A DNA stretch of 64,000 nt from Planctomycetota bacterium. Lineage in GTDB: Bacteria > Planctomycetota > MHYJ01 > WSZJ01. The stretch lies in the NCBI GenBank assembly GCA_009773755.1, contig WSZJ01000007.1, positions 3,493 through 67,492 of the forward strand, in the 5' to 3' direction. The translations under genes were made by a program, and so were the position numbers. This document shows positions 4,283 through 52,228 of the stretch, in pieces (positions within the stretch are counted from its first letter, which is position 1; every line of letters starts with the position of its first letter). The notes under the pieces are model-generated. The model made no database searches. It was not told where the DNA came from and saw nothing but the letters and a program-made list of their open reading frames with translations.

Positions 4283-5629
4283 CTACTTCGCGAATTCCGA
4301 AAGCGGCCGGTCCACTGCGGACTCCAGGTCCACTCGCGCCGATGCATACGCCGCTTCCGCCTCGATCGACTCGCCCAGGGAGTCGAGGTAGTCCTGCTGC
4401 GCGCGCAGCAGATCGGCGATGCCCAGGTTTCCGTCGGCGTAGGCGGCGCGCACGTCCTCGAGGTTCTTGGAAGCGAGGGGGAGGACTTCTTTCTCGAAGA
4501 GATCGAGAGTCTGCGAAGCGGCCTTGAGCCGGGCGGCGGACGCGGTGACTTCTCTTCCGACTTCGGACTCGAGGGCGGCGCGGAGGGCGTCGAAGCGGCG
4601 GCGGTCGGCCTGGGCTTCGAGAATTTCGCCTCGTTTCGAATTCCAGAGGGGCAGCGTGAGGGAGAGGCCGAATGTCACCATGTGGTCGTTCATGCGGATG
4701 TCGACCCCGTCGCCCTCGACGCGGCCTCGCTCCCATTCGTATCCGAGGCCGAGTCCGAGCTCGGGCGCGCCTTCCGCGTCGGCGAGCGTGGCGCGGGCGC
4801 CGGCTTCGACGGCGGCCTGCGACAGCACGTCCAGATCCGGCCGCCCGGTTCGCGCGGCGGCGAGAGCTTTGGCGAGATCGGGTTCGGGGCGGTCGGCGGG
4901 AAATGTCACGGCGAGGAGCCACCCGGCGGGCGGCGACTCGCCGGCGAGCGCCTCGACATCCGCGCGCGTTGCCTCGACTTCCCCCTCGGCAGACTTCACG
5001 GCGGCGCGCGCCTTCGCGGCGCGGACTTTCGCGGAATTCACGTCGGTCGCGGAAGCCTGGCGGGCGTCGTAACGAGCCACGGCGACCTCGACGTCCTTGG
5101 CGGCGAGCTCGGCGAAGCGGCGCGAGACATCCAGTTTCCGGAGTGCGATGGACGCGTTCCACCAGGCGAGACGCGCCCTGGAGCGGAGCTCGCGCAAGGC
5201 GTCGCGCGCTTCCGCGCCGGCGCGGGCGATCCCGGCTTCCGCCACGGCTTCCCGCTTCGAGAGCCTTCCGCCCAGATCGATCCGCTGGTGAACGCCGATC
5301 CCGGCCTGCGTGCTTTCGCCATCGACGGACTGCGCGCCCTCGAAGGCCACCTCCGGGTAGGACTGGTACGTCCCCGCCGCCACCTTCCGCGCGCGCGCCG
5401 CTTCCCACTCCTCAAGCGCCGCGATCGAGCGCCCGTGGCGCTCCACGGCGCGCAGAAGTTCGGCGAGCGAGAGGCCGTCGGACCAGTCGATCGGGGCGGC
5501 GGGAGGCGGGACCGCGAAATCCCCATGGCCCGTTCTCCAGTCGGGGAGCGGGACCGGGCGGTCCTCGATGGCAGCGCAGCCAGCGAGCGCGAAGAAAAGC
5601 AGGAGCGGGAGGAATCGAGTCGTCATCAT
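4283..5629 (-). CDS. TolC-family outer-membrane efflux lipoprotein (OMF/NodT-CusC-like), copy 1
   Basis: 448 aa with lipobox FALAGC. It has the two-repeat OMF architecture of long Ala/Arg-rich helices, and a C-terminal LLRAQQDYLDS..AEAAYASARVDLESAV block typical of OMFs. The start overlaps the stop of the YHS lipoprotein (AAATGA). Confidence 0.8.
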   Translation of the reverse strand: MMTTRFLPLLLFFALAGCAAIEDRPVPLPDWRTGHGDFAVPPPAAPIDWSDGLSLAELLRAVERHGRSIAALEEWEAARARKVAAGTYQSYPEVAFEGAQSVDGESTQAGIGVHQRIDLGGRLSKREAVAEAGIARAGAEARDALRELRSRARLAWWNASIALRKLDVSRRFAELAAKDVEVAVARYDARQASATDVNSAKVRAAKARAAVKSAEGEVEATRADVEALAGESPPAGWLLAVTFPADRPEPDLAKALAAARTGRPDLDVLSQAAVEAGARATLADAEGAPELGLGLGYEWERGRVEGDGVDIRMNDHMVTFGLSLTLPLWNSKRGEILEAQADRRRFDALRAALESEVGREVTASAARLKAASQTLDLFEKEVLPLASKNLEDVRAAYADGNLGIADLLRAQQDYLDSLGESIEAEAAYASARVDLESAVDRPLSEFAK

Positions 5630-6063
5630 TTGTGGTCGCTCCCTTCGTGGTTGTGACCGTGGCTACCCGATCCGTCCACGGGTTGGGGATCTCCGCACTC
5701 GCACCTCTCCGCCTTGTCCTGGCAATGGCCGCACCCGCAGTGCTTCATGGCGCCCGTGGAGCAAATGCATTTTTCTTTCGGGAGCCCCGTCATCGCGGCC
5801 GAGGGGGCCGCCTTGAACGTGTCGAGGCAGGCGGTCGAGCAGAAGTGAAACCGCGTTTCGCGGTAGACGAATTCCGGCTGTCCGGCGATCGAGAAGAGCT
5901 TTCCGCACGCAGGGTCGCGCGCGCTGCCATCAACGGCGGTCTCCGAGTCTGCGTGCGCGGCGCCCGTGCCGTGATCGTGATCGTCGTGTTCGTTGCTGCT
6001 GCCGCAGCCCGCGATTGCCGCTACGAGCAGCGAAGTTGCGAATTTCACAAGTGATCCGCGCAT
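5626..6063 (-). CDS. YHS/TRASH-domain metal-binding lipoprotein, His/Cys-rich
   Basis: Lipobox AIAGC and an HDDHDH tract. YHS-like core DPACGKLF..YRETRFHFCSTACLDTF. Cys cluster CICSTGAMKHCGCGHCQDKAERCEC. His-rich C-terminal tail GSGSHGHNHEGSDHK. Confidence 0.7.
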   Translation of the reverse strand: MRGSLVKFATSLLVAAIAGCGSSNEHDDHDHGTGAAHADSETAVDGSARDPACGKLFSIAGQPEFVYRETRFHFCSTACLDTFKAAPSAAMTGLPKEKCICSTGAMKHCGCGHCQDKAERCECGDPQPVDGSGSHGHNHEGSDHK

Positions 6064-6091
6064 GAAGGGCTCCTTGCTCCAGGGGGAAAAA

Positions 6092-7311
6092 CTACTTGGG
6101 ACCGCCGCCGACTTTGTACGCCATCGTCCCTTCAGGGTGCTTGTACCAGCCCGGGTCTTCGTAGCTGGTGATGCCGTCGCGCACCTTCAGAATCGTGAAC
6201 ATGCCTCCCATGCCGAGGTTGTCGAAGGGTCCCTTGCCGGTCATCATCGCCAGCGTGTTCTCAGGACCGGGCATGTGATCGGCCATGTCCTGCATTTCGG
6301 CCATTCCCTTCTCTCCCATTGCCATGTATCCGGGGAGCAGCTTCCGGATTCTCCCCTCCAGCCCCTTCTGGTCCACGCCGATCATGTTGGGAACGTGATG
6401 TCCCATCGCGTTCATGACGTGGTGGGATTTGTGGCAGTGGAGGGCCCAGTCCCCCGGGAGGTCGGCGACCCATTCGATGTCGCGCGTGGCTCCGACGGGC
6501 ACGAGGACCGTCGTTTCGGGCCACCCCGCGGACTCCGGAACGTCGCCGCCGTCGGTGCCGGTGACGGTGAAGGATGCTCGTCCATGCTCAAGTTGGCGAT
6601 GCGGATCCGCACGCGCTGGCCGGTTCTGACGACCAGGGGGGCCGTGCCGGGGAACGCCTTGCCGTTGAACGAGAAGGTGTTGAAGTCGAGCATGACGGAA
6701 GGGTCGGGGCGGTACGTCCCCGGTTCGATCGCCCACATGTGCAGGAAGATGGAGAAGTCACGGTCGATTTTCCGCGACGCCTTTTTGGGGTGGATGACGA
6801 ACATGCCCATCATGCCGACCGCCATCTGGGTCATTTCGTCCACGTGCGGGTGGTACATCTGCGTCCCGTGCTGGATCAGGGTGAACTCGTAAGCCCACGT
6901 CTCTCCCGGCTGGATGTACGGTTGCGTCAGCCCGCCCACGCCGTCCATTCCGCAGGGAAGCAGGACGCCGTGCCAGTGGACGCTCGTGGGCTCCGGCAGC
7001 TTGTTCTCCACGAAGATCCGCACCTTGTCGCCTTCCACGCACTCGATGGTCGGCCCCGGCGTTCGCCCGTTGTAGCCCCAGGCCTTCACCTTGCACCCCG
7101 GGGCGAATTCGTGTTCCACTTCCTCGGCAATCAGATGGAATTCCTTCACGCCGTCCTTCATCACGAACGGAAGAGTGGCCCCGTTGGGAGTTTCGACTGG
7201 CGTGTAGCCGTCCGCGGCGGGCGGATCTTCCGCGCGCGCCGTCCCGCCCAGCAGCAGCCCGGCCCCGGCCAGCGCCGCCCCGCCCGTCACGAGCAACTCT
7301 CTTCGCGTCAT
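6092..7311 (-). pseudogene. multicopper oxidase (CopA/CueO-like, Tat signal) with a frameshifting deletion
   Basis: Split between track ORFs 6412..7374 and 6092..6736. Tat motif MTRRELLVTGGAALAGAG. Cu motifs HWHG, HPH and HCHKSHHVMNAM are present. The frame breaks at 6571/6572, where ..ANLSMDEHP joins FTVTGTDGG and the expected HxHxH copper site is missing. Length is 1220 nt, not a multiple of 3. Confidence 0.75.
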
Positions 7312-7353
7312 CACGATCCACCTCCTCTTCGCCGCCTCGATGCTTTGGTTGTT

Positions 7354-7379
7354 CCTACCCACTACCCCCTGCAAACTCC
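7354..7379. repeat. heptamer-periodic CTACCC-type tract
   Basis: The sequence cctaccc actaccc cctgcaa actccct lies in the spacer between the TolC-like copy 2 stop and the MCO start. Confidence 0.55.
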
Positions 7380-8741
7380 CTACTTCTTCTCCCCCGGCAG
7401 CCGTCCTCCCACCGCGCGTTCCAGCTCCGCCCGCGCGATCCAGTAGTCCCTGACCATTTCAATCGACTCGTCGTACGCGTCGTACTCTTCCTGCCGCGCA
7501 CGAAGCACTTCCGCAACGCCGATCAGCATGAAGTTGTATTCCCTGAGCGCGAGTTCCACGATCCGCTCGCGAAGCGGGATTACGACCCTTTGAAGGTGCT
7601 CAGCCTTGCGCCGGTGCGTGAGGAGCCGTTCCCTTGCGGAGCGCACCTCGGAGCGAATCCGGATCGCGAGGTCCCGATTTGTCGACTCGCGCCGCCGGAG
7701 CTCCGCTTCGAGCGCGAATATCGCCGCCTGCTGGCGGTCGAATATCGGAAGACTCAGCGCCAGGCTCGGACCGTACGCCCAGCCGACCTCCGGTTCGAGC
7801 TCCCGATGCGCATCGAATCCCAGCTCGACCGTTCCGAGCCACCGGAACGCCTTCACAAGGTCGAGACGCTCGACAGAAGCGTCTCGCTCCCGCCGGGCCG
7901 CAGCGAGATCGAGACGGCGCGCGATGGCGAGGGACTCGAGCCCGTTCAGCGCGATTTCAGTTCCCGGCATGTCCGGGAGTTTCTTCGGGGCCGTCCACGC
8001 GACCTGGGTTCCCCATGCGCCGAGAATTACCGTCAGGTTCTCCCGCGCCTCGGATACCTGCTCTTCCGCCTTCACCCAGGCCATCTTTGAGCTCTCGGAC
8101 TGGTCGCGCTCCCGCGAGGCCGCAAGCTCGCTCAGATTCCCCGCATCCTTCAACCGCGCCGCCAGGTCGGCCTGTGCTTCCGCCGCCGCAGCAATCGCGT
8201 GGCGAACCTCGGCCCGCTGCTGCGCCGCCACAACCTCGAGCCACGCCACCTTCGCGCGCGCCGCCATCTCGATCACGTCGTCGACGACGTGGAATTTGAC
8301 CCGCTCAAATTCCATCGAAGCGACTTCCTTCCGGGCGGGAATCATCAGCAGGTCGAGAAAATTCTGCGCGATCTCGAAGTCCATTCCCGTGACCACGCCG
8401 GGCCTCGTGGGGAAATGGGCGCTTCCGAAAATCGTCGGATTCGAGAGAATTCCGGCCTGCACGAGGTCGGCCTGGGCGACGCCGAGGTCCTCGTAATGGG
8501 ACTGCAATTCCGGGTTGTTCAAGAGCGCGATCTGCACGACGGATTCCGACGTCAGCTCGCGCGAAAACAATTCGTCGATCGTACGTCGGACCTCCGCGTC
8601 CTCGGGACCGCCCCGGAACCAGTGAACCTTCTTTGCCGTGCGTTCCTCGGCGGGCTTCCGGACGTCCTCAAATCCCGCGTCCTCCGGGACGGAGCAGCCC
8701 GCCAGCACGATCGCCGCTACAGTCGGGAGCCAGGTTTTCAT
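7380..8741 (-). CDS. TolC-family outer-membrane efflux lipoprotein, copy 2
   Basis: 453 aa with lipobox VLAGC and OMF helical repeat architecture. The start overlaps the stop of the HMBD lipoprotein through the same GACCACAAATGA junction as copy 1. Confidence 0.8.
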   Translation of the reverse strand: MKTWLPTVAAIVLAGCSVPEDAGFEDVRKPAEERTAKKVHWFRGGPEDAEVRRTIDELFSRELTSESVVQIALLNNPELQSHYEDLGVAQADLVQAGILSNPTIFGSAHFPTRPGVVTGMDFEIAQNFLDLLMIPARKEVASMEFERVKFHVVDDVIEMAARAKVAWLEVVAAQQRAEVRHAIAAAAEAQADLAARLKDAGNLSELAASRERDQSESSKMAWVKAEEQVSEARENLTVILGAWGTQVAWTAPKKLPDMPGTEIALNGLESLAIARRLDLAAARRERDASVERLDLVKAFRWLGTVELGFDAHRELEPEVGWAYGPSLALSLPIFDRQQAAIFALEAELRRRESTNRDLAIRIRSEVRSARERLLTHRRKAEHLQRVVIPLRERIVELALREYNFMLIGVAEVLRARQEEYDAYDESIEMVRDYWIARAELERAVGGRLPGEKK

Positions 8742-9049
8742 TTGTGGTCATGCCCCTTGTGCTCCCCTGCCGGCGCCTCCTTGACGGGCTGCAGGTCCAT
8801 GCCGCACTTCGGACACGCCCCGGCCTTGGCACTCTTCACTTCAGGATGCATCGGGCAGGTCCACGTCGCGCCCTCGGGCGGCTTCTCATCCGCCAGCGGT
8901 TCCACCGGCCCGCTCAGCCGGTCGGGCGGCGGCGCCCACGCCGTCTCGGGCGCCGCCGGGTTGGCCGGGTCGGTCGCGGATGGCGGCCCGTCGCCGCTTC
9001 CCGCACATCCGGCAAGGGAGGCCAGCAGGACCAGAAACAGGGATTTCAT
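8738..9049 (-). CDS. heavy-metal-binding-domain (HMBD) lipoprotein
   Basis: Lipobox SLAGC. WTCPMHPEVKSAKAGACPKCGMDLQPV matches the YTCPMHPE..CPxCGMxL HMBD motif found at the N-termini of Cu/Ag efflux components. C-terminal tail EHKGHDHK. Confidence 0.75.
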   Translation of the reverse strand: MKSLFLVLLASLAGCAGSGDGPPSATDPANPAAPETAWAPPPDRLSGPVEPLADEKPPEGATWTCPMHPEVKSAKAGACPKCGMDLQPVKEAPAGEHKGHDHK

Positions 9050-9136
9050 GGGGAGTCCTCGAGGAAAGAATGAGTCGGAAGCGGCGATGGCGCCCGCGGG
9101 ACGGAGGCCGGGCGCGACGAGGGACTGGCGTGCGCG

Positions 9137-9499
9137 CTAGATCAGCAGCGATGCGTGAAGGGTGGCCAGCGGGCGGCCCGGCGGCGCGCGTCCGCCGGTG
9201 ACGGAAGCGGGCGGCGGAAGGGCGGGTAGCGAAGGGAACCCGGCGGGCGCGATGCCGGCGGCTGGCTGGGCGACTGGCGCGGGATCGTCCACGATCGCGA
9301 GGGTGATGCCGTCGACGCAGCAGCAGGCCGTCGGGGCCGGCGCCTTCGGTTCGGTCGGCAGGCGCTTCCCGCAGCAGGAATGCGCCGGCTTCGGCTCGCG
9401 CGGCGCGGGGACTGACATCGACGCCCGGCACGCCGTGGCGGCGAAATTCCCGGCGATGAACGCCGTGGTGGCCAGCAGTGCCGTCAATCCCCGCTTCAT
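9137..9499 (-). CDS. small secreted Cys-cluster protein, unknown function
   Basis: Signal-peptide-like N-terminus MKRGLTALLATTAFIAGNFAA. Cys clusters HSCCGK and ACCCVDG, then a Pro/Ala-rich C-terminus. ATGA overlap with the glycerate kinase stop. No family recognised. Confidence 0.4.
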   Translation of the reverse strand: MKRGLTALLATTAFIAGNFAATACRASMSVPAPREPKPAHSCCGKRLPTEPKAPAPTACCCVDGITLAIVDDPAPVAQPAAGIAPAGFPSLPALPPPASVTGGRAPPGRPLATLHASLLI

Positions 9500-10476
9500 C
9501 TCTTCACCTTACCGGACCCCGGTCCGCTTCTCAATCGCGAATGCGTTTCCCGGAATGCCGCTTCTTCCAACAGCCGCGCCGGGTCCCGCATTCCCGCGCG
9601 TGCGGATCGGGCGATTGCGACGACCCCCTGCGCCCTTTCCCGGACGGAGCCGCAGAGGGCGACGCAGGGAACGCCCGCCCTGCGCGCCCGGCGCATGACC
9701 TCGCCGGGCGCCTTGCCCTCCCGCGTCGTCGCGTCCCATTTCCCCTCCCCGGTGAGCACAAAGTCGCATTGACGCAGTGCGTCATCGAAGCGGAGCGCGT
9801 CGAGCACGAAGGCCGCGCCGGGCCGGAGTTCAGCGCCCAGGAGCGCGAGCGCCCAGCCGATCCCGCCCGCCGCCCCCGAGCCGGGGAGACGGGCCGCGCG
9901 GCGGCCTCCCGGGATCCGGACGATCCCGCGGAAGTATTTCTCCAGGTCCCTTACGTCCGCCGGCGTGGCTCCCTTTTGCGGGCCGAAGCGTCTCGGGGCA
10001 TCCATGAAGCGGGTTGAGACGTCGCAGGCGGCGACCATGCGGGGCCGCTTGGCCAGCTCCGAAAGGCCCGCGAGAAGCCCCGCTCCCGCGTCAATTGACG
10101 CCGAGCCCCCGAGCGCGACCACGATTCGTCCCGCGCCGCGCTCCGCCGCGTGCCGGATCATTTCGGCGACGCCCACGGATGTGGCGATTGCCGGCTCACG
10201 GCGCCCGGTCCGCGCCAGGCCGACTTGCGCAACTTCCACAATCGCCTCGCGTCCTTTCCTCCGGTATTCCACCCGCAACCGTTCGCCATAAGGGCCCGTC
10301 GCCGTCATCTGCACTGGCCGCCCGCCAAGCACCGCAGCGGTTCCGTCGCCGCCGTCGGCAACCGGCAGAAGCACCGGCCTGCCCCCGGCGCGCTTCACGC
10401 CGCGCGCCATCGCCTTCGCGGCCTCAAGCGCCGTCAGCGTCCCCTTGTAGGCATTCGGCGAGCACAGCACCTTCAT
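9496..10476 (-). CDS. glycerate kinase family protein
   Basis: Family blocks are present: APNAYKGTLTA, VADGGDGT, ALGGSASIDAGAG, FGPQKGAT, GSGAAGGIG, LTGEGKWD. Confidence 0.8.
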   Translation of the reverse strand: MKVLCSPNAYKGTLTALEAAKAMARGVKRAGGRPVLLPVADGGDGTAAVLGGRPVQMTATGPYGERLRVEYRRKGREAIVEVAQVGLARTGRREPAIATSVGVAEMIRHAAERGAGRIVVALGGSASIDAGAGLLAGLSELAKRPRMVAACDVSTRFMDAPRRFGPQKGATPADVRDLEKYFRGIVRIPGGRRAARLPGSGAAGGIGWALALLGAELRPGAAFVLDALRFDDALRQCDFVLTGEGKWDATTREGKAPGEVMRRARRAGVPCVALCGSVRERAQGVVAIARSARAGMRDPARLLEEAAFRETHSRLRSGPGSGKVKR

Positions 10477-11626: not shown

Positions 11627-11641
11627 AAAGGAGTGACCTCG

Positions 11642-12940
11642 ATGAATTCTTCCCGCGTCTTTGCTGTCGTGTCCGCGGCCGTGCTTCTCTCGATGGCGCT
11701 CTCGCCCACGAACGCCGGCGACCCCGCCTCCGAGAAGAAGGACAAGGTCAACGACGCGGTCGAGCTGGCCGCGGGATGGCTCTACGACGACCTCCCTGCG
11801 GCCCTTGCGCGCGCGAGGAAGGAGAACAAGCCGATATTCGCCGCGTTCCGGTGAGTGCCCTGAGCGTCGTGCAAGACGTTCGACGGGCAGGTGGCCCGTC
11901 TCGAGGGGGGAATCGGGGACCTGGCGAAGGATTTCGTCTGCGTGCGCGTCATCCAGATGCGCGGGATCGACACTTCCGTGTTCCAGTTCGACTACGACCT
12001 GACCTGGTGCGGGTTTTTCCTGAACGCCGACCTGACGGTCTACGGCCGCTACGGCTCGCGCAACGCGGGGCGCGACAAGTCGGACCAGCTCATGTCCGTG
12101 GACGGGCTCAAGGCCGCCTTGACGAAAGCTCTCGCGCTTCACAAGAACTACCCCGCCAACAAAGCAACGCTCAAGGCCAAGACCGGCAAGCCGTACGCTC
12201 AGAAGCTTCCCGAGACGATGCCCGCGATCGCAGACCAGTTCAAACAGGACGACCTCCCCAAGAAATGCATTCACTGCCACCACGTCTGGCGAGGGATCCG
12301 GCGCACGATGATGAACGCGAAACAGGTCCTGCCGGACACGCTGATCTACCTGTATCCGTTTCCCGACAGCTTTGGAATGCAGATGGAAACTGCCGACGGC
12401 ACGAAAGTTCGCCAGGTCGTGAAGGACTCGATCGCGGACAAGGCCGGCGTAAAGGCGGGGGACGAGGTGGAAGCCGTGAGCGGGACGCCGATCGTGTCGC
12501 TGGCGGACATCCAGTTCATCCTGCAGAACTGTGCCGATAACGAGAATCTCAAGGTTGAAGTGGCGAGAGGCGGGGAAAAAAAGAGCCTGACCGCCAATCT
12601 CTGCGGCGACTGGCGCAAATCGACGGACTTCACGTGGCGCGACTCGTGCTACGACCTGCGCATCGGGTTCCAGAGTGAGGCGCTCACGGCGGACGAGCGG
12701 AAGCAGGCGGGGCTGAAGGACGGCGGGCTCAAGATCAAGCCGATGTACGCGCAGAGTCCGGCGAAGAAGGCCGGGTTCCAGGACGGCGACATTCTCCTGA
12801 GCGTAGGAGGGCAACCGATCCCGGCGACGGAGCGGGAATTCCTTGCGCTGCTGCGGCAGAAGTTCCTGGTAGGCCAGAAACTGAAGTTTGCCCTTCACAG
12901 GGGCGGCAAGAAAACCGACCTCACCATGGACCTGCCATGA
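11642..12940 (+). CDS. periplasmic thioredoxin-fold + 2x PDZ protein, putative selenoprotein with U-V-P-U motif (paralog A)
   Basis: AAGGAG RBS (11628-11633) and ATG at 11642, with a signal peptide. Track ORFs 11633..11854 and 11891..12940 are in the same frame, separated only by TGA (11852-11854) GTG CCC TGA (11861-11863). The TGAs fall where a thioredoxin-like fold has CxxC (..ENKPIFAAFR-U-VP-U-ASCK). Downstream lie a CIHCH motif and two PDZ-like segments (GVKAGDEVEAVSG, AGFQDGDILLSVGG). Confidence 0.7.
11882..11900 (+). promoter_or_regulatory. putative bacterial SECIS hairpin (paralog A)
   Basis: GACGGGC-AGGTG-GCCCGTC is a 7-bp perfect stem with a 5-nt loop containing GGU. The loop begins 25 nt after TGA-2 and 34 nt after TGA-1. 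It covaries with the paralog B hairpin. Confidence 0.6.
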
Positions 12941-13003
12941 CGTAAATAGCTTCTGAATAAGGAGTTGCGTCGAGTCAATGGCGATGTCTCGGCCAGCTCG
13001 CCC

Positions 13004-13038
13004 TCCTCGCAACTCGCAACACGCAACTCGCAACTCTT
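13004..13038. repeat. tandem heptamer (CTCGCAA)n tract
   Basis: The sequence cctcgcaa ctcgcaa cacgcaa ctcgcaa ctc lies between paralogs A and B. The same repeat occurs at 30681-30715 and 52846-52880. Confidence 0.8.
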
Positions 13039-13096
13039 CTCTGTAACGCCCGCGCCCCTTCGCCGTCCTTCTCGCAAACCCACTGCAGACGGCCAC

Positions 13097-14392
13097 ATGC
13101 AACGTTCACGCCTCTTCGCCTCAACCGCCCTCGCCGCCCTCCTCGCCACCTTTGCCGCTTCCCGCCTCCCCGCCGGCGACACGCCTGCTGAGAAGCGCGA
13201 CAAGATCAACGACAACACAGAGATCAATCCTTCGTGGATCTACGACGACCTGCCGTCCGCCATTGCGAAGGCCAGGCGCGAGAACAAGCCGATCTTCGCC
13301 GTGTTCCGGTGAGTGCCCTGAGTCAGCTGTAACAAGTTCGACGCGCAGGTGGCGCGTCTCGGCGACGGGCTCGACGAAATCGGGAAGGAATTCGTGCTCA
13401 CGCGGATCATCCAGATGCGCGGCGTCGACACGGCGGTCTTCAATTTCGACTTCGATCTGTCCTGGGCGGGGTTCTTTCTCAATGCCGACCTCACCGTCTA
13501 TGGGCGCTACGGGACGCGCCGGGACGGAGGCGACTCGCAGTACTCGACGAGCGCGCTCAAGGAAGCGATGACGAAGGCGCTCGCGATCCACAAGGCCTAC
13601 CCCGCGAACCGCCCGTCGCTGGCGCCGAAGAACATCAAGGCGTCGAACCTGGGAAAGATGCCCGAGCAGATGCCGGCGATCGAGGTCCAGTTCAGGAACC
13701 CGGACATCCCGCGCAACTGCATTCACTGCCACCACGTCTGGAAGGGCGTCCGGCGCTCCCGCATGGCGGACAAGAAGCCGATGCCCGACAACCTGCTCTG
13801 GGTCTACCCGATGCCGGACACGATCGGCGTCACGATCGACGTCGCGGACGGCGCGAAGATCGCCTCCGTCGCAGCCGGGACGCCCGCGGCGAAGGCCGGC
13901 GCGCAGGCCGGCGACGTCGTGCTTTCCATCAACGGCGCACCGATGTTCTCGATCGCGGATTTCCAGTTCGTGCTTCAGAACTCACCTGACCAGGCCACGC
14001 TCAAGGTGGAAGTCCAGCGGGGAACGGAAACGAAGGTTCTCTCGATCGCGATCTCGGGCGACTGGCGCAAGGCCGCCGACTTCACCTGGCGAACGTCCTG
14101 CGGCGACCTCCGCCTCGGCATGCAGATGGAGTCCCTGAACGACGGCGAGCGCAAGGCCGCCGGCTTGCGCGCGGGCGGAATCAAGGTCAAGAACGCGTGG
14201 CCGAAGGGTCCCGCCGGCATGGCCGGCTTCCAGGCCGGCGACGTGATCGTCGCGCTCAACGGCCAGCCCGTGCCGGACAAGGAAACCGATTTCCTCGCCT
14301 GGATACGCCAGAAATTCCTGCCCGGCCAGAAAATCAAGCTGACGGTCGTGCGCGGTGCAAAGAAGCAGGACATTTCCATGGACGTGCCGTAG
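13097..14392 (+). CDS. periplasmic thioredoxin-fold + 2x PDZ protein, putative selenoprotein with U-V-P-U motif (paralog B)
   Basis: Start at MQRSRLFASTALAALLATFAA (ATG 13097). Track ORFs 12965..13312 and 13349..14392 share a frame, split only by TGA (13310-13312) GTG CCC TGA (13319-13321). The sequence reads ..ENKPIFAVFR-U-VP-U-VSCN. It has the same CIHCH motif and PDZ-like segments as paralog A. Confidence 0.7.
13340..13358 (+). promoter_or_regulatory. putative bacterial SECIS hairpin (paralog B)
   Basis: GACGCGC-AGGTG-GCGCGTC has the same geometry and loop as the paralog A hairpin. The fifth stem pair is C-G instead of G-C. Confidence 0.6.
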
Positions 14393-15483: not shown

Positions 15484-15597
15484 CAACAACGAAAAGAAAA
15501 ACGAAAAACGAAAAACAAAAAACGAAAAGTGACTGGCCCGGTCCACGCCTGCGTTTTCGTTTTTTGTTTTTCGTTTTTCGTTTTTCGTTTCGTTGCC
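15484..15597. repeat. long A/T-rich inverted repeat made of AAAAACG heptamers
   Basis: The left arm caacgaaaagaaaaacgaaaaacgaaaaacaaaaaacgaaaag is mirrored by cgttttcgttttttgtttttcgtttttcgtttttcgtttcgttg, around a GC-rich ~22-nt centre. It lies between the FHA gene stop and the pdxA start. Confidence 0.85.
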
Positions 15598-18090: not shown

Positions 18091-19362
18091 TCAAAATCGT
18101 ATGTCAAGGAATATGGGAGTGGGGAGAACCCGTTGAAAAGCGTTGATAACCCTTTGAATTCCACGAGTTACGACGACCGGCGCCACGGAGTCCAGAACTT
18201 CGGATGCGCCCTCCTGGAAGTCCTTTCCCGCAAGCGTGACCATGTTCCGGGAAACGACGTTCCACGCAAGGCCTGCCGAAAGCAGCGATGCAACCAGAGA
18301 CGATCCTCCGTAACTCAAGAATGGCAAAGTAATTCCGGTGATCGGCGCCAGCCCGATCGTCATCCCGACGTTGACGAATATCTGCGTCCCAAATCCCGCC
18401 GACAAGCCCGTCAGCACCAATCGACTGAACGGCTCTCGCGCTCGATACGCTCCGTGCACCATCGCCATCAACAAGATCAGGTAGAGCAGGAGCACCGCCG
18501 ACGCTCCCAGGAATCCCCATTCTTCCCCGATCACCGAGAAAATGAAGTCGTTGTGCTTTTCCGGCACAAACGACTCCGATCCCTCCTGGTCCGACTCCGC
18601 AAACCCCTTCCCCATCCACCGCCCAGACCCGATCGCCCGCTGTGATTGCAACAGCTGAAATCCGGCATCCTGGCTCATCGCCTGCGGATTCAGGAACGCT
18701 TCGAAGCGCTTCTTCTGGTACTCCTTGAACCCGAACTTGTACGCGACCGGCGTCCCGATCAGCACCGCAATGACTCCGAACGCCATGTACCGCTTCCCGC
18801 ACCCCGCGACCCACATCATCGCGACGAACATCGCGGGAAAAATCAGGGCCGTGCCCAGGTCGGGCTGCATCAGGATAATTCCGAATGGAACGAGCGCGAG
18901 GAGCGCGGGCACCACGAGCCGGGCCATCCGGTCGGGCGTTTTTCGCCACATCAGGTACCTCGCGAGCGTCAGCACGAAGAACAGCTTCATGAACTCGCTC
19001 GGCTGAATCGACACCGGGCCGAGCACGAGCCACGACTTCGCGCCATTGCGGGCGCGGGCGATGACGAAGAGGACCGCGAGCACGCCGAGGCACGACCCGT
19101 ACAGCGAGTAGCCGACGGACCGGATCCGATTCGGCCGGACGCGCGACACGACGAACGCCAGCACCGCGCCGACAAGCGCAGCAACGCACTGCTTCCCGAA
19201 GTACGACTTCAGCGCAACCCTCGCGGTCGCGTGAAAGCCGCCTTCGATCGGCAGAACGAGCGGCGCGGCTTCGTAGATGGACGCGAGTCCGACCGCGATG
19301 AGCAGCAACACCGGAAGTACGATCGGGATGGCAGGCGAGAAGAGCCGGCCGGGGAGCATCAT
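18091..19362 (-). CDS. rodA: SEDS-family peptidoglycan polymerase RodA
   Basis: 423-aa multi-TM FtsW/RodA/SpoVE family protein (PSEFMK, TDFIFSVIGEEWG, LPFLSYGGSS). It lies directly downstream of mrdA with an ATGA overlap. Confidence 0.85.
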   Translation of the reverse strand: MMLPGRLFSPAIPIVLPVLLLIAVGLASIYEAAPLVLPIEGGFHATARVALKSYFGKQCVAALVGAVLAFVVSRVRPNRIRSVGYSLYGSCLGVLAVLFVIARARNGAKSWLVLGPVSIQPSEFMKLFFVLTLARYLMWRKTPDRMARLVVPALLALVPFGIILMQPDLGTALIFPAMFVAMMWVAGCGKRYMAFGVIAVLIGTPVAYKFGFKEYQKKRFEAFLNPQAMSQDAGFQLLQSQRAIGSGRWMGKGFAESDQEGSESFVPEKHNDFIFSVIGEEWGFLGASAVLLLYLILLMAMVHGAYRAREPFSRLVLTGLSAGFGTQIFVNVGMTIGLAPITGITLPFLSYGGSSLVASLLSAGLAWNVVSRNMVTLAGKDFQEGASEVLDSVAPVVVTRGIQRVINAFQRVLPTPIFLDIRF

Positions 19363-21716
19363 CGCGGAGGCTCCTGGCCGGGCGCGGGGCCGTCAGGTGC
19401 TTCCCCGCCCGGTTCGACTTCGTCCCGGGTTTCGTCGCGCGGCGCGGGGGACGGCGTGTTGTCGTAATTCGACGTCGGACCGGCCGGCTCAAGCACGTCG
19501 CCGGGCAACTCGACGGCCGGCCAGATCGAGTGCAGCAATCGCGCCGCCGTCTTCGCAGGGAGGCCGCTTCCGGCGCCGCCTTCCTCGATCATGACGCAGA
19601 ACGCGTATTTCGGATTATCGAAGGGAGCGTATCCGGCGAACCATCCGTGGTTTTCGCGGCCGCCCTCGGACACGCGGCGGGAGCTGGACTGGGCGGTCGA
19701 GGTCTTTCCCGCGGCCTTGAACAGAAGGAGGCCGCTCGAACGGGCGGTGCCGAAGTCCTCCATGGTGACGGCTTCCAGGCCCTTGCGCAGTGCGGCGAGC
19801 GTCTCCGGTTTGAGCTTCAAGTCCTCGAACCGCACTTCCGCGTCGAGCCTCATCCGCGGCAGGGGAAGTTTGCCCGCCGCAAGTCCCGCCATGAGCCTCG
19901 CGGCCTGAAGCGGCGTCACGAGCATTTCGCCCTGGCCGATCGAAACGTTCAGCGTGTCGGCGAATCCCCACCTTCCGCGGCCCGTGGCGCGGCGCCAGGC
20001 GGGAGTGGGAATCTGTCCTGCTGCTTCGCTGGGAAGGTCGATCCCGGATTTCCGCCCGAGCCCGAAACGGTTGGCCATTTCGGCGATGGCGTCGATTCCG
20101 GCGCGATTCCCGGTCTCGAAAAAGAAGCAGTTGCAGGAGCGCGCCATTCCCTGGCGCAAATCGAGATTTCCGTGCGCGCCGCCGTGCGAATTGATCCAGC
20201 AGGCGAACTTGTTCGGCCACCGGACCGGGTCATACCGGCCGCGGCAGATGAACAGATCGGCGGCCGTGACCTTTCCGGACTCCAGCCCGGCCGCGCCCGT
20301 GACCACCTTGAAGATTGACCCGAGCGGATAGCGGCCGGAGATGGCGCGATTGAGAAGCGGCGCCATGGCTGGATCGTAGAGCAGGTCCATCTCCTCTTTG
20401 CCCATCGGGGGAATGAGCCAGTTCGCGTCGTATCCCGGCGCGCTGGCCAGCACCAGCACGTCGCCGGTCGCGACATCCATGACCACGATCGAGCCGCGGA
20501 GGGCGAGCGGAAGCGAGTCGAGAAGCGATTCGGCTTTTCGCTGAAGGGGCATGTCGAGGGTCAGGGTGACGTCTTTCCCCGGCACGGGCGCGACCCTGTC
20601 GACAATCCACTCGCGCTTCGTCAGGAGATTCTTTGCCCGACGCTCGAACCCGCGCTCGCCGCCAAGGACGTCCTCGTACCAGCGCTCGATACCGGTCCTG
20701 CCGACCCAGTCGCCGTAGAATGCCCCGCGGAACTCCAGGCGTTCGTACTCGGCATCGCTGATCTTGCCTGCGAGAGCGCGGTTCACCCGGTGCGGCCATG
20801 TCTGCCGACGCTTCGCCGGATCTTTCTCTTCCGCCTTTTCTTTCCGGAATGCGAGGTTGTCATCGGAGAGAGAAAGCCCGACTTCGACCCGGAACACCCC
20901 CGCCCTCTCGAAATCCTGGTACTCCTCTTCTCCCATCAGCCCAACGGACCCGACGGCCTGACAGGCCGCGCGTCCGGCCGAGTACACCCGCTTTGTCCGG
21001 GCGCGGATCTCGATACCCGGGAAGGAGCTTTCGTCGATCGCGATATCGCTCATCTGGTCGTAGGTCAGCCCCTGCCAGAGGCGGAAGGGTTGACGCCATT
21101 CCTGCTGGAGGATCCAGCGTCGGTCGCGCGCGCTGACCGGAGGCTTCCCGGGCACGTTGCAGCGCGCGTGCGCCGCGCGGTCAACGGCCTTGAGTTCCCG
21201 TACCGCTTTCACGTACATCTGCGCCGGCTCCGGCCGCGGAAGGACGCCGCCCGATCGAAGCATGGCACCGATCGCCTCCGTGTCCGGCACGACCAGCGTC
21301 CCTCCGTCCGCGCCCAGAAGCGTCTTCACCGGGTACGCCCGTTCACGCAGCATTGTGGCGCACTGCCGTTCGTCGAATCCCGCCCCCGCCCCGGCAAGCC
21401 CCAGCGTGTCGCGCATCACCCGCGCCAGCCGCGCGTAGTCCAGCTCCGGATCGCGACCCTTCACCCGCGGCAACTCAAAATCCGCCAGCACCACGTCCAC
21501 GTCGAAACACCTCTCCTCTGATGCCAGCACCTCCCCGCTCCGGGCGAAGATGTTCCCGCGAGGCGTCGGCACCACTTCCACCCACTCCCTCGTCCAGGCG
21601 CCTCGCGACCGGAACTCTTCCGCGTCGACGATCTGCATCCAGAACAGCCGCGCTTCCAGCGCCGCAAACGGCATCAGGAGGAGAACGCTGAACACCACGA
21701 CGCGCAGCTTTGTCAT
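19359..21716 (-). CDS. mrdA: penicillin-binding protein 2 (elongasome transpeptidase)
   Basis: N-terminal TM anchor. Transpeptidase motifs SIFK (SxxK), SCN(SxN) region and KTST/KTG-like AGKTSTAQ. Its position is between mreD and rodA. It has a Pro/Glu-rich C-terminal extension. Confidence 0.82.
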   Translation of the reverse strand: MTKLRVVVFSVLLLMPFAALEARLFWMQIVDAEEFRSRGAWTREWVEVVPTPRGNIFARSGEVLASEERCFDVDVVLADFELPRVKGRDPELDYARLARVMRDTLGLAGAGAGFDERQCATMLRERAYPVKTLLGADGGTLVVPDTEAIGAMLRSGGVLPRPEPAQMYVKAVRELKAVDRAAHARCNVPGKPPVSARDRRWILQQEWRQPFRLWQGLTYDQMSDIAIDESSFPGIEIRARTKRVYSAGRAACQAVGSVGLMGEEEYQDFERAGVFRVEVGLSLSDDNLAFRKEKAEEKDPAKRRQTWPHRVNRALAGKISDAEYERLEFRGAFYGDWVGRTGIERWYEDVLGGERGFERRAKNLLTKREWIVDRVAPVPGKDVTLTLDMPLQRKAESLLDSLPLALRGSIVVMDVATGDVLVLASAPGYDANWLIPPMGKEEMDLLYDPAMAPLLNRAISGRYPLGSIFKVVTGAAGLESGKVTAADLFICRGRYDPVRWPNKFACWINSHGGAHGNLDLRQGMARSCNCFFFETGNRAGIDAIAEMANRFGLGRKSGIDLPSEAAGQIPTPAWRRATGRGRWGFADTLNVSIGQGEMLVTPLQAARLMAGLAAGKLPLPRMRLDAEVRFEDLKLKPETLAALRKGLEAVTMEDFGTARSSGLLLFKAAGKTSTAQSSSRRVSEGGRENHGWFAGYAPFDNPKYAFCVMIEEGGAGSGLPAKTAARLLHSIWPAVELPGDVLEPAGPTSNYDNTPSPAPRDETRDEVEPGGEAPDGPAPGQEPPR

Positions 21717-22216
21717 GCCAGGAGCTCCCGCTCAGGAGCCCAGCCGGCGATGCCGCGGATTTTCGCGAAAGGTCTCGCGGCGAGCGCCCCGAGTCCGGCG
21801 GTGAGAGCCGCGACGGCGAGCGAGTGCCCGATGCCGTTCCAGAACCCGACCCCGTAGCGCGCCGCCAGCACCATCCCGTAGGGCGCGTGCGCTACCAGCG
21901 CAGCGACGAAGCAACCGATCGCCATCCCGAGCGGGCGCGACGGGAAGAGCATGCCCCGCATGGTGTTCGCGACGAGCGCCGCGAGAAGGAACATCAGCGC
22001 GAACGGCCCGGGACCGCTTCCGCCCGTCAGGTCGCGAAGGAGCCCGAGGGACCAGGCGGCGATGCACGAGGTGTTGCGACCGGTGCGAAGTGCGATGGCC
22101 GCGAGGACGACGATGGCGACGTCAGGGACGGCGCGGCCGATGGCGAACAGCGGGGCGAGCGCGATCTGTGCGATCGTCGCGAGCAAGGCCAGGAAGATGA
22201 AGACGATCCAGTTCAC
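21713..22216 (-). CDS. mreD: rod shape-determining protein MreD
   Basis: 167-aa polytopic membrane protein located between mreC and mrdA, with an ATGA overlap with mrdA. Confidence 0.7.
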   Translation of the reverse strand: MNWIVFIFLALLATIAQIALAPLFAIGRAVPDVAIVVLAAIALRTGRNTSCIAAWSLGLLRDLTGGSGPGPFALMFLLAALVANTMRGMLFPSRPLGMAIGCFVAALVAHAPYGMVLAARYGVGFWNGIGHSLAVAALTAGLGALAARPFAKIRGIAGWAPERELLA

Positions 22217-22237
22217 GTCCGTGTCCTTGGCCGCTGG

Positions 22238-23008
22238 TCACTTTCCCAGGAGTACCAGCACATGCCTGAGGGACGAAGGGTCGACGCGGGGACGGACGAC
22301 GATGTCTCCGTAGACGCCGGCGCCGTTGCCGCTCTTCGCGACTTCACCGATGAGCATCCCCGCGGGCCAGCCGCGATCCGGGTCCGCGACGCTGACGATG
22401 ATCCAGCCTTCGCCGACGGGCTCCCGGTCCAGCACGTATTCGAGTCGGCAGGTTCCGTCGCCGCTTCCCGCGAGGATCCCCGTGACTCCGGCGCCCGCGC
22501 CCTTTTTCACGGCCGCGACTTTCATCCGGAAGGCTGGGTCGCCGACCAGGCGGACGCGGGAGGTCGTTTCGCCGGACTCCAGGACGCGACCGACGACGTT
22601 GGGGCCCTCCGTGACGATCATTCCCTGCTTCACGCCGTCCCGCGTCCCCTTGTCGATCATGACGGTGCCGTGCCACGTCGAGGGATCGTCAGAAAGGAGG
22701 ACCGACGCCGGCAGGACGCGCGGAGAATCCCCGATCGAGGCTTCGCGGTACGCGCTCACCTTCCGGAGTTGCGCTTCGAGCTCCCCGGCCTTGCGCTGCT
22801 GCCGCAGCAACTCCGCGAGCAGTTCGCCGTTTTCTGCCCGCAGGCGCTTGTTCTCGTCTCCGCCGCCGCGCCATTCGGCAAGAGGACGGAGGAGCGCGAA
22901 GGGTGCATAGCGGGGCCCGGCGGGGATCCGCGACTGCGCGAGAATGAGCACTCCCGACGCCAGGGCGAGGGCGATCGGCAAGGTCCAGGTCAGTTTCAGT
23001 CGGCGCAT
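22238..23008 (-). CDS. mreC: rod shape-determining protein MreC
   Basis: N-terminal TM, coiled-coil segment (ENKRLRAENGELLAELLRQQRKAGELEAQLRK) and C-terminal beta domains (VVGRVLE..SRVRLV, GMLIGEV). Confidence 0.85.
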   Translation of the reverse strand: MRRLKLTWTLPIALALASGVLILAQSRIPAGPRYAPFALLRPLAEWRGGGDENKRLRAENGELLAELLRQQRKAGELEAQLRKVSAYREASIGDSPRVLPASVLLSDDPSTWHGTVMIDKGTRDGVKQGMIVTEGPNVVGRVLESGETTSRVRLVGDPAFRMKVAAVKKGAGAGVTGILAGSGDGTCRLEYVLDREPVGEGWIIVSVADPDRGWPAGMLIGEVAKSGNGAGVYGDIVVRPRVDPSSLRHVLVLLGK

Positions 23009-23054
23009 CTAATACGGCGCTCCGAGGCCTTCGTCAAGTGTTGTCATTTTTCAT

Positions 23055-23197
23055 GAACGCGCGAAAGAACCTGGACGGAGAACCGGCCGGGACGCTTCGA
23101 CTCGCCGCGCAAGCACGCCTCGTTCGAGCGAGATCCGCGCCGCGCGGCGGGTCGAAATGTCCCGGCCGGTTCGTAGTCCAGGTTCTTTCGTGCGTTT
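23055..23197. repeat. ~140-nt imperfect palindrome between mreB and mreC
   Basis: The outer arms gaacgcgcgaaagaacctggacggagaaccggccggga (23055-23092) and tcccggccggttcgtagtccaggttctttcgtgcgtt (23160-23196) pair. The inner arms ttcgactcgccgcgc and gcgcggcgggtcgaa also pair. The centre resembles the REP-like family. Confidence 0.75.
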
Positions 23198-24254
23198 AGT
23201 CGATATCAGCGGACGATTCGATGCTGTCGCGCAGCCTGTCGAGGTTGTCGAGGATGACGCCCGTGCCGCGGGCAACCGCGGTGAGCGGGTCATCGGCGAT
23301 GACGACGGGAATGTCGATCTCCCTCGTGATCGCGGTCTTGATGCCGCGCAGAAGCGCTCCTCCGCCTGCGAGCGTGATGCCGCTCTCGACGAGGTCCGCG
23401 CTGATTTCCGGCGGGATGAGCTCGAGCGTTTCCTTGATCGCCTTGACGATCCTCATGATCGGGTCGGAGAGCGCCGAGCGGACCTCGGCCGACGACACGA
23501 TGATGCAGCGCGGCATCGCGGTGACGACGTCTCGGCCGCGGACCTCCATCGTCAGTTCTTTCTCGAGCGGAGCCACGGAACCGATCGTGAGCTTGATCTT
23601 CTCGGCCGTGTTTTCGCCGATGTACAGGTTGTAGTTCTCCTTGCAGTGCTTCATGATCGCGTCGTTGAGCTCGTCCCCCGCGACGCGGATCGACTTGCAC
23701 GCGACGACTGCGCCGAGCGAGAGAACGGCGATTTCCGAAGTCCCGCCGCCGATGTCGACGATCATCGAGCCGCGAGGCTCCTGGATCGGCAGGCCGACGC
23801 CGATGCCCGACGCGATCGGTTCGGGGACGAGGAAGACCTGGCGCGCGCCGGCGCGCTCGGCGCTGGCGAGCACCGCGCGCTTTTCAACGCCGGTGATTCC
23901 GCTCGGGTGAGCCACGATGACGCGCGGACGGAACCAGCCCTTGCGCTTGTGGATCTTCTGGATGAAGTACTTGATCATCGCCTCGGTGATGTCGAAGTCC
24001 GCGATGACGCCGTCCTTCATCGGGCGGATCGCCTCGATGTTCCCGGGACATTTCCCGAGCATTTCCTTGGCGGCCGAGCCGACGGCCTGGCCGTTCATGA
24101 GGATCTGGTTCGTGCCCTTCTTCACCGCTACAACGCTGGGCTCGTTGAGGACGATGCCGGCCCCCCGCACGCAGACCAGCGTATTGCAGGTGCCGAGGTC
24201 GATGCCCATATCGGTGCTGAAGACACCGATGACGCGGTCGATCAGACTGATCAT
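23196..24254 (-). CDS. mreB: rod shape-determining actin homolog MreB
   Basis: Start at MISLIDRVIGVFSTDMGIDLGTCNT (ATG is rc of 24252-24254). The MreB/actin ATPase blocks are present throughout (DIGGGTSEIAV, LAGGGALLRG). Confidence 0.95.
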   Translation of the reverse strand: MISLIDRVIGVFSTDMGIDLGTCNTLVCVRGAGIVLNEPSVVAVKKGTNQILMNGQAVGSAAKEMLGKCPGNIEAIRPMKDGVIADFDITEAMIKYFIQKIHKRKGWFRPRVIVAHPSGITGVEKRAVLASAERAGARQVFLVPEPIASGIGVGLPIQEPRGSMIVDIGGGTSEIAVLSLGAVVACKSIRVAGDELNDAIMKHCKENYNLYIGENTAEKIKLTIGSVAPLEKELTMEVRGRDVVTAMPRCIIVSSAEVRSALSDPIMRIVKAIKETLELIPPEISADLVESGITLAGGGALLRGIKTAITREIDIPVVIADDPLTAVARGTGVILDNLDRLRDSIESSADID

Positions 24255-24353
24255 GGCTATCCCCTCTCCGAGATTGCCTTGTGTCCAGCGCTCGCCTTGC
24301 CCGATCAGGATGGTCGAGCAGAAGCGGACGTCCGCCATGCGGCCGTCGCTATT

Positions 24354-45357: not shown

Positions 45358-46338
45358 CTATCCGCGCGCCGCCTTCTTGCCCTTCGCCGCGCTCCCGCGC
45401 TTCAACGCCAGCCGCAGCATCGTCTCGCACAGGTCCGCGTAACCGAGACCGCTCGCCAGCGCCGCCTTCGGAAGGAGCGACCGCTCCGTCAGTCCGGGGA
45501 GGGTGTTGACCTCAAGCACCATCGGCCCACGCTTCTCGTGGAAGATCACGTCGACGCGCGAGAAGTGCTCGCAGCGAAGGGCTCGATGCGCGGCGACGGC
45601 GGCTTGCGCGACGGCGCGCTCGACGATTTCGGGCAGGTGCGGCTTGACGAGGTACTCCGTGCCCGTGTCGACGTACTTCGCTTCAAAGTCGAAGAACTCG
45701 CGCTTCGGGCGCAGCTCGATCAGCGGCAGCGCGCGGCTCTCGAGAATGCCGACGGTCAGCTCGCGTCCCTGGATGAATTCTTCCACGAGGACGCGCGAGT
45801 CGAAGTGGAACGCGGCGTCGAACGCGGCGTCGAGCCCGGAGCGGTCGCGGACGATCGAAACGCCGACGCTGGAGCCTTCGCGCGCGGGCTTGATGACGAG
45901 TGGGAATCCGACTTCGGCGGCGGCGGAGGCGCGGGCGAACGTGTCGTCGCCTTTGCCGACCGTGGTGAATCCGGCGGTCGGGACGGCGTGGGCGATGAAG
46001 AGGCTCTTGCTGAGAATCTTGTCGAACGCATTGAAGGACGCGTCGGCGGGCGAGCCGGTGTACGGGATGCCGCGGTCTTCGAGGATCTTCTGGAGCGTGC
46101 CGTCCTCGCCGAAGCGTCCGTGCAGCGCGAGGAATGCGGCGTCGTACTCGAACGGTTCCGGGAGCGCGGCGTCGATGATCACGAGTTCCGCGGGAAAGCC
46201 CGCGTCCGCGAGCGCCTTCTGCGCGGCGCGACCGCTTCGAAGCGAGACTTCGCGTTCGGAGCCGGGGCCGCCGGCGAGGACGGCGACCTTGAGCGTGCGG
46301 TCGGAAAGGGCACGAAAGAGAGACCTGGTTTTGCGCAT
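45358..46338 (-). CDS. ddl: D-alanine--D-alanine ligase
   Basis: Ddl blocks are present: GGPGSEREVSLRSG, LHGRFGEDGTLQ, KPAREGSSVG, EVNTLPG. Confidence 0.9.
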   Translation of the reverse strand: MRKTRSLFRALSDRTLKVAVLAGGPGSEREVSLRSGRAAQKALADAGFPAELVIIDAALPEPFEYDAAFLALHGRFGEDGTLQKILEDRGIPYTGSPADASFNAFDKILSKSLFIAHAVPTAGFTTVGKGDDTFARASAAAEVGFPLVIKPAREGSSVGVSIVRDRSGLDAAFDAAFHFDSRVLVEEFIQGRELTVGILESRALPLIELRPKREFFDFEAKYVDTGTEYLVKPHLPEIVERAVAQAAVAAHRALRCEHFSRVDVIFHEKRGPMVLEVNTLPGLTERSLLPKAALASGLGYADLCETMLRLALKRGSAAKGKKAARG

Positions 46339-46357
46339 GGGGATGAGCCTTGGTTGT

Positions 46358-46392
46358 GGGAGTGGGGAGTCGGTAGTGGGCAGGGGGTAGTT
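46358..46392. repeat. heptamer-periodic GGNAGTN tract (GGTAG family)
   Basis: The sequence gggagtg gggagtc ggtagtg ggcaggg ggtagtt lies in the murB-ddl spacer. Confidence 0.6.

Positions 46393-51199: not shown

Positions 51200-52228
<1,029 letters not shown>

Follow-up and report, generated by a model that had tools for sequence, protein, structure and literature searches.

Within a 64,000-nucleotide (nt) stretch of Planctomycetota bacterium contig WSZJ01000007.1 (GenBank assembly GCA_009773755.1, positions 3,493 to 67,492 of the forward strand), referred to below as the window, we analysed two tandem paralogous genes, A and B, each of which carries two in-frame TGA codons. The first-pass annotation of this DNA had proposed that both genes encode thioredoxin (Trx)-fold proteins with two selenocysteines (Sec, U) in a U-V-P-U motif. 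The genes and their in-frame UGAs are located as follows.

11642..12940, + strand: gene A, putative Trx7/PDZ selenoprotein coding sequence of 432 codons with two predicted Sec codons, ending in an ordinary TGA stop at 12938-12940
11852..11854, + strand: gene A U1, first in-frame UGA, in a column that is an invariant cysteine (Cys) in the homologue alignment (C71 of alignment A1)
11861..11863, + strand: gene A U2, second in-frame UGA, in a column that is Cys in at least 90% of homologues (C74 of A1)
13097..14392, + strand: gene B, putative paralogous Trx7/PDZ selenoprotein coding sequence of 431 codons with two predicted Sec codons, ending in a TAG stop
13310..13312, + strand: gene B U1, first in-frame UGA
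13319..13321, + strand: gene B U2, second in-frame UGA

An AGGAG sequence lies 8 nt 5' of the gene A ATG, and the two proteins share 54% identity. Both genes are split in the open reading frame (ORF) track of the + strand, gene A into 11633-11854 (73 amino acids, aa) and 11891-12940 (349 aa) and gene B into 12965-13312 (115 aa) and 13349-14392 (347 aa). As had been reported, the halves of each gene stand in one frame, nothing but two TGAs 9 nt apart interrupts them, and the 18-mer TTCCGGTGAGTGCCCTGA is identical between the paralogs. Two independent assemblies of this organism contain the 18-mer as well (ENA ERZ27284380, on a 218-kb contig, and Logan SRR8438314). Both translations read FR-U-V-P-U-x-S-C (U-V-P-U-A-S-C in gene A), which includes the third Cys that had been noticed after the motif. 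The 156-nt spacer between the genes holds a tandem repeat of the heptamer CTCGCAA (4.4 copies, 13006-13036), close 5' of the gene B start.

To the sides of the TGAs, comparison of the window with its orthologues gave a ratio of nonsynonymous to synonymous differences (pN/pS) of 0.11-0.39 at a pS of 0.39-0.58, in the same frame over 44 codons 5' of the first TGA and 116 codons 3' of the second. Both halves are therefore under purifying selection as long-maintained reading frames, and are not pseudogenes. In the comparison with homologues that the first-pass annotation had suggested, 79 of the 120 best database homologues were full length, and R-C-[VI/P]-P-C falls exactly on both TGA columns in 78 of these, as Cys-x-x-Cys also does in 36 Cys-type loci. 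The remaining 41 are truncated at ~350 aa, as would be expected of Sec forms that gene finders miscall.

Codon states were typed in the DNA of the 80 best loci in species-representative genomes, and in the window in addition. The 84 genes typed comprise 25 UxxU, 23 CxxU and 36 CxxC forms, with no UxxC, so that the second position, which corresponds to U2 of gene A and is the Sec of the published CxxU forms, is TGA in 48 of 48 typed Sec forms. The TGA-x-x-TGA pair is not a product of chance: 23 further genes from 21 other genomes have it at the same column, as do 28 distinct metagenome sequences. Of the Sec forms in the closest relatives from species-representative genomes, roughly half have two Sec codons; in the metagenome sample the share is roughly a third. 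Going by record titles, Planctomycetota (including Brocadiaceae and Pirellulaceae) and Candidatus Poribacteria account for most of the UxxU genes, and Verrucomicrobiota for most of the CxxU genes, which also occur as single cases in Kiritimatiellia, Omnitrophota and Armatimonadota. Turnover between Sec and Cys is rapid among the close relatives L001-L005: L001 and L002 carry an orthologous tandem UxxU+UxxU pair, and in L003 (3139, 4973) a CxxC copy without the third Cys (CPPCKEL) adjoins a UxxU copy. L004 and L005 have the gene-B type alone within the fetched flanks. One homologue, P0006, keeps the first and third Cys and has Ala at the second.

Searched with the TGA codons entered as Cys, both proteins match the NCBIfam equivalog NF041199, "Trx7/PDZ domain-containing (seleno)protein", with 378.2 bits for gene A and 366.1 bits for gene B at a curated cut-off of 300 bits, and the matches span profile positions 2-389 of 390. 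Pfam finds a Thioredoxin_7 domain (PF13899) followed by two PDZ stretches in both proteins. The parts of gene A are listed below.

11642..11719, + strand: predicted Sec-type (general secretory) signal peptide of gene A, MNSSRVFAVVSAAVLLSMALSPTNAG, with a hydrophobic core and an A-x-G end, read from the translation
11777..11968, + strand: Thioredoxin_7 match of gene A, residues 46-109, which includes U-V-P-U-A-S-C (Pfam PF13899, E = 1.2e-9)
12377..12601, + strand: PDZ domain 1 of gene A, residues ~246-320 (Pfam PDZ_2 and PDZ_6; DegP/DegQ/RseP-like tandem PDZ in the model of the homologue P0004)
12716..12931, + strand: PDZ domain 2 of gene A, residues ~359-430 (second Pfam PDZ stretch; partial NCBIfam matches at 359-430)

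The translation of gene B likewise appears to start with a typical hydrophobic signal peptide, and with signal peptides on both, the two proteins are predicted to be exported. The upstream half therefore has the content that had been described for it, namely a signal peptide and the start of a Trx-like fold, as located by the Thioredoxin_7 match in gene A.

Downstream of the second UGA, each gene contains a conserved hairpin, which we interpret as a selenocysteine insertion sequence (SECIS).

11882..11900, + strand: gene A SECIS hairpin GACGGGC-AGGUG-GCCCGUC, with pairing conserved over 44 Sec forms and two covarying pairs
13340..13358, + strand: gene B SECIS hairpin GACGCGC-AGGUG-GCGCGUC, with a G:C to C:G compensatory change relative to gene A

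The 44 Sec-form sequences align without gaps when counted from the first Cys/Sec codon, and all of them carry the consensus GACGNNC-AGGU(U/G)-GNNCGUC at columns 31-37/43-49, which starts 18 nt after the second UGA. Pairing extends to 97.3% of cells in these sequences, compared with 46.9% at the same columns in 35 Cys forms. Two variable pairs covary in the Sec forms (AU/GC/CG/UA and GC/GU/AU); the observed covariation score was reached by 0 of 500 shuffles and slid registers were at most 58% paired, while the Cys forms (n = 35) gave no covariation signal above shuffles at the SECIS columns. RNAalifold returned the same helix from the UxxU set and from the CxxU set, each alone. Measured from the second and the first UGA, the base of the hairpin is 18 and 27 nt downstream and its apical loop 25 and 34 nt downstream, respectively, and the position of the hairpin is identical in CxxU and UxxU genes. 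The apical-loop guanines of AGGUK fit the bacterial SECIS consensus cited in PMC13582414. This pattern identifies the predicted hairpin as a bacterial SECIS and, given its shared position in the CxxU and the UxxU genes, a single element probably serves both UGAs, which would be the simplest reading.

The 18-nt spacer that separates the second UGA from the SECIS can fold into a further, smaller hairpin, which is present in gene A.

11864..11879, + strand: gene A spacer hairpin GCGUC-GUGCAA-GACGU, -6.0 kcal/mol, the loop of which spans the codon for the third Cys

In two independent data sets, such a hairpin is much commoner in UxxU genes. The mean spacer energy in the species-representative genomes was -4.98 kcal/mol for UxxU, -1.95 for CxxU and -2.21 for CxxC (UxxU versus CxxU, Mann-Whitney p = 1.5e-5, kinship ignored), and the mean z against shuffles was -2.1, -0.2 and 0.05, respectively. 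The metagenome contigs form an independent set, retrieved with a pattern that leaves the 18 nt unconstrained and restricted to forms other than CxxC; there the means were -4.87 kcal/mol for 28 unique UxxU and -1.93 for 61 unique CxxU sequences (p = 2.5e-8, kinship ignored). The stems vary by lineage (GCCU/AGGC, GAGGC/GCCUC, GGCU/AGCC, GUCC/GGAC and GCGUC/GACGU) and encode differing amino acids, which argues for selection on the RNA and not on the protein. In most cases the loop covers the codon for the third Cys, and it often has GNRA form. A strong spacer hairpin is also found in some CxxU genes. RNAalifold did not recover it as a consensus from the UxxU set or the CxxU set, because its register differs between lineages, and the enrichment is stated from per-sequence energies only. 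As a tentative idea, which we rate clearly below even chances, the spacer hairpin of UxxU genes could be a dedicated second RNA element that lets a single SECIS decode two UGAs 9 nt apart. It may compact the spacer and so bring the SECIS to a working distance from the first UGA; alternatively, it may slow the ribosome between the UGAs and let a second SelB/Sec-tRNA complex load. If true, bacterial tandem Sec insertion would follow a new cis-acting rule, located in an envelope oxidoreductase of Planctomycetota and Poribacteria that has two Sec (possibly as a diselenide), is widespread and has gone unrecognised.

Taken together, these data make it highly probable that genes A and B encode intact, exported selenoproteins in which both UGAs are recoded with a single SECIS, most probably to Sec rather than to Cys. 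Recoding would be carried out by SelB/Sec-tRNA(Sec), directed by one SECIS hairpin per gene. The earlier description of the products as Trx-fold/PDZ selenoproteins is upheld by the NF041199 matches above cut-off, the succession of Thioredoxin_7 and two PDZ stretches, the Cys-aligned UGAs and the covarying SECIS; genes A and B are members of an already described selenoprotein family, in a two-Sec state.

Several points weigh against this interpretation. The spacing between UGA and SECIS is strict in Escherichia coli, so that one SECIS for two UGAs 9 nt apart is an assumption. Such sharing has been proposed in silico only, for other UxxU proteins (PMC13582414), and the Sec assignment across the whole Trx7/PDZ family comes from sequence only. 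No selA, selB, selD or tRNA-Sec was found within the 64-kb window by ARAGORN, Rfam and an NCBIfam scan of neighbouring genes; the ARAGORN and Rfam gathering-threshold scans of the whole window returned nothing, a result that is uninformative on the Sec machinery. In the same Rfam scan the SECIS hairpin matched no curated RNA family. In addition, gene B is without the spacer hairpin found in most UxxU genes, and the spacer energy of gene B and its orthologues is only -1.4 to -3.7 kcal/mol.

Among the alternatives, the one that survives best, and that we still consider unlikely, has tRNA-ReC (SelC*-type, Cys-charged) inserting Cys at one UGA or at both, via SelB at the same SECIS, in which case the mature protein would be CxxU, UxxC or CxxC despite its UGA codons. 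Genes resembling tRNA-ReC occur in ~56% of genomes with UxxU-type hydrogenases versus ~2% of other Sec-type genomes, and where tRNA-ReC is present either UGA may be translated as Cys (PMC13582414). Furthermore, the first position is Cys-encoded in the 23 CxxU genes, so Cys is functional there. However, the window contains no tRNA of any kind and thus offers nothing positive for tRNA-ReC, and the first-position UGA has been kept across at least eight scattered clades and many species, when a mutation to UGC would have been the cheaper route were Cys the intended product.

It is very improbable that the genes are truly split, each into a 70-residue exported peptide and a separate PDZ protein that starts at the GTG at 11891 or 13349. 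The first-pass annotation had stated that the downstream halves have no ATG or ribosome-binding site of their own; they have indeed no ATG, but each has one of these GTG codons 3' of the UGAs. Automatic annotation takes them as starts, and for this reason the gene callers' products of 349 and 347 aa stand as truncated "PDZ domain-containing" proteins of a Planctomycetota metagenome-assembled genome in public records P0001 and P0008. A product started at GTG would nevertheless be without signal peptide, first Trx strand and active site. The split-gene reading was rejected because 79 homologues run continuously through the site with Cys, the covarying SECIS is confined to TGA-bearing forms, and conservation in frame extends over the stretches of 2 and 9 codons that separate the stops from the GTG.

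The probability that the TGAs come from TGC/TGT codons by sequencing or assembly error, or by recent pseudogenising mutation, is negligible: the same contig does have at least one apparent frameshift, in a multicopper oxidase gene (6092-7374), but four independent TGAs stand at homologous Cys codons of two paralogues, and such an origin is effectively refuted by the recurrence of the same codons in two assemblies, 21 other genomes and 28 metagenome sequences and by purifying selection on both halves at pS ~0.5. Equally far from plausible, a genome-wide reassignment of TGA (e.g. to Trp or Gly) is effectively refuted by its use as the commonest true stop in the window, where it ends 23 of 48 confidently called genes, including conserved cell-wall/division genes and gene A itself, and in homologues the residue at the two columns is Cys instead of Trp or Gly.

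Returning to the selenoprotein interpretation, members of the family have the motif C1-x-x-C2, in most cases extended by x-x-C3; 47 of 48 Sec forms have C3, but 9 of 36 Cys forms lack it. The TGAs had been assigned to the CxxC position of Trx folds, and this holds in so far as both columns are conserved Cys. The placement of the canonical CxxC may differ, however: weak phmmer alignments (E 0.5-1.1) to thioredoxin h (1ep8) and to the Thioredoxin_7-like 3ira set C-G-P-C and C-H-W-C over C2-x-x-C3, that is, on U2-x-x-C3. The AlphaFold model of P0004, a Cys homologue that is 61% identical (predicted local distance difference test 92, predicted template modelling score 0.88), has a strand at residues 62-67, then a loop with C68 and C71, and a helix from residue 75, and is consistent with a canonical motif at C2-x-x-C3. 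With this placement, the Sec of the published CxxU forms would be the canonical N-terminal nucleophile of a UxxC, and U1 of UxxU would lie three residues upstream, in the strand-helix loop. Since C1 is invariant and C3 occurs in nearly all Sec forms, all three residues are probably close in space. The two Sec would take the place of the C-x-x-C pair that is universally conserved in the family; with the third Cys, they would make up a redox centre of three chalcogens at the N-terminal end of the first Trx helix. The oxidised state may be a U1-U2 diselenide or a U2-C3 selenenylsulfide, the formation of a diselenide in U-x-x-U being purely conjectural.

Foldseek with the full P0004 model retrieved only the tandem PDZ of DegP, DegQ and RseP from the PDB (E ~1e-9), and a second model, of the N-terminal domain of the window protein from after the second UGA (without strand 1), had no PDB match. 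The match of the DegP, HtrA and RseP profiles is confined to the PDZ region and far below the cut-offs (TIGR02037: 74-82 bits vs 416), and Pfam found no protease domain in either protein, trypsin-like or other. There was no match to peroxiredoxin (Prx)/AhpC-TSA or SelL; Thioredoxin_7 and weak VPGUxxT-family matches were the sole thioredoxin-superfamily matches. The linker between the Trx and PDZ parts carries an invariant motif in both genes.

12266..12280, + strand: gene A C-I-H-C-H (CxxCH) motif in the Trx-PDZ linker, with Cys, Cys and His invariant in alignments A1, A4 and A7
13718..13732, + strand: gene B C-I-H-C-H motif in the Trx-PDZ linker, the same invariant motif

A further invariant His is found ~45 residues N-terminal of CxxCH, in L-H-K-x-Y-P-x-N. 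The CxxCH resembles a site at which an exported protein would attach c-type haem or bind a metal by Cys2His2; Pfam gave no cytochrome domain in either protein and no domain over the CxxCH region. Thus laid out, the protein would comprise a signal peptide, Thioredoxin_7, a helical linker with CxxCH and two DegP-like PDZ domains, and its likely activity, judged by domain logic, would be thiol/selenol-disulfide exchange with envelope proteins that the PDZ pair captures.

The family was first reported from the Global Ocean Sampling metagenome in 2008 as "putative secreted serine protease MucD", CxxU, with two Sec sequences and 12 Cys homologues (PMC2398784). It is listed with one Sec in a 2022 review as "PDZ domain-containing protein, pfam13899, CxxU" (PMC9312934) and in a 2026 review as "Trx7/PDZ", CxxU (PMC13188914). 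Genes A and B share with these NF041199 entries the architecture, Sec at the second Cys of C-x-x-C and a SECIS at the same distance; they differ in the motif variant, UxxU with two UGAs each, and not in homology, and also in that they are tandem paralogues that are both UxxU. An incomplete literature search found no paper describing the UxxU form of Trx7/PDZ, and the two-Sec state is apparently uncatalogued. The C-terminal tandem PDZ of HtrA/DegP/DegQ and RseP is structurally similar to that of Trx7/PDZ, but the trypsin-like protease domain is absent from genes A and B, so that "MucD" and "serine protease Do" are misnomers.

The closest precedent for the motif is SelL, a eukaryotic Prx-like UxxU protein, for which an intramolecular diselenide is on record (Shchedrina et al. 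2007, as cited in PMC2398784). SelL and genes A and B both have two Sec with two residues between them in a thioredoxin-superfamily redox motif. Unlike SelL, genes A and B have Thioredoxin_7 instead of a Prx-like/AhpC-TSA domain, PDZ domains and a third Cys after the motif, with no sequence relationship detected between the two, and they are bacterial, with an in-frame SECIS inside the coding region. Group 4 [NiFeSe] hydrogenase large subunits also have UxxU and CxxU variants (PMC13582414, September 2026) and resemble Trx7/PDZ in the mosaic of CxxC, CxxU and UxxU, in having the same SECIS in CxxU and UxxU, and in the proposal of one downstream SECIS for two UGAs. They are unrelated proteins in which Sec is a metal ligand and UxxC forms exist, whereas Trx7/PDZ is without UxxC, and the UxxU-specific extra hairpin present in Trx7/PDZ is not reported for them. 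Other two-Sec proteins are a Prx-like thiol:disulfide oxidoreductase (UxxC/UxxU), the metal-binding NF041115 (UxxU), FmdB (UxxU) and ferredoxin-thioredoxin reductase (PMC13188914, PMC9312934); these have closely spaced UGA pairs at redox or metal Cys pairs, as here, but belong to different folds and families, none of which has PDZ.

The UxxU state of Trx7/PDZ is widespread in Planctomycetota and Poribacteria, and both the public truncated "PDZ domain" records and the one-Sec catalogues stand corrected. Natural candidates for a diselenide redox switch are few, and an exported Trx-fold protein with a UxxU(xxC) centre would count among them. In addition, CxxU and UxxU genes share the SECIS and differ mainly in the first codon and the spacer hairpin, which makes them a natural system for studying tandem Sec decoding by SelB/SECIS, and rules for tandem Sec would be useful for designing multi-Sec proteins.

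With regard to the surroundings, a heuristic search of the window for further TGA-interrupted ORFs gave only antisense or alternative-frame artefacts of the high-GC genome and no additional selenoprotein genes. The NCBIfam scan of ten unassigned neighbours returned TolC-like proteins, a multicopper oxidase, PdxA, Lnt, MoeA and a sortase-target-like protein, with no sel genes among them. The gene neighbourhood is not conserved beyond the close relatives L001-L005, and therefore gives no operon-based functional clue. A copper/metal-resistance-like cluster lies at ~4283-9500 on the - strand, with TolC-family outer-membrane proteins at 4283-5629 and 7380-8741 and the multicopper oxidase (CopA/CueO-like, with a twin-arginine translocation signal) at 6092-7374. 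The oxidase is split between two frames: ORF 6412-7374 is good to ...ANLSMDEHP and then degenerate, and ORF 6092-6736 holds the C-terminal HCHxxxH, so that the apparent frameshift near 6560-6600 would be an assembly error or a pseudogene. Three small Cys/His-rich lipoproteins belong to the same cluster, at 5626-6063 (YHS/TRASH-like, CGK...C), 8738-9049 (CPMHPEV...CPKCGM) and 9137-9499 (CC and CCC runs), and a small protein of the 9137-9499 type is conserved beside the Trx7/PDZ genes in L001, L002, L003 and L005.

Elsewhere in the window, ORF order and size mark 45358-59702 (- strand) as a candidate division/cell-wall (dcw-type) cluster and 18091-24338 (- strand) as a candidate mreBCD/pbp2/rodA-type block. 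The 5' end of the pdxA ORF contains inverted, A/T-rich heptamer arrays, AACGAAA in six copies (15488-15528) and TTTTCGT in five (15554-15590), which are unusual in a 65% GC genome and yield a spurious Lys/Arg-rich N-terminal extension.

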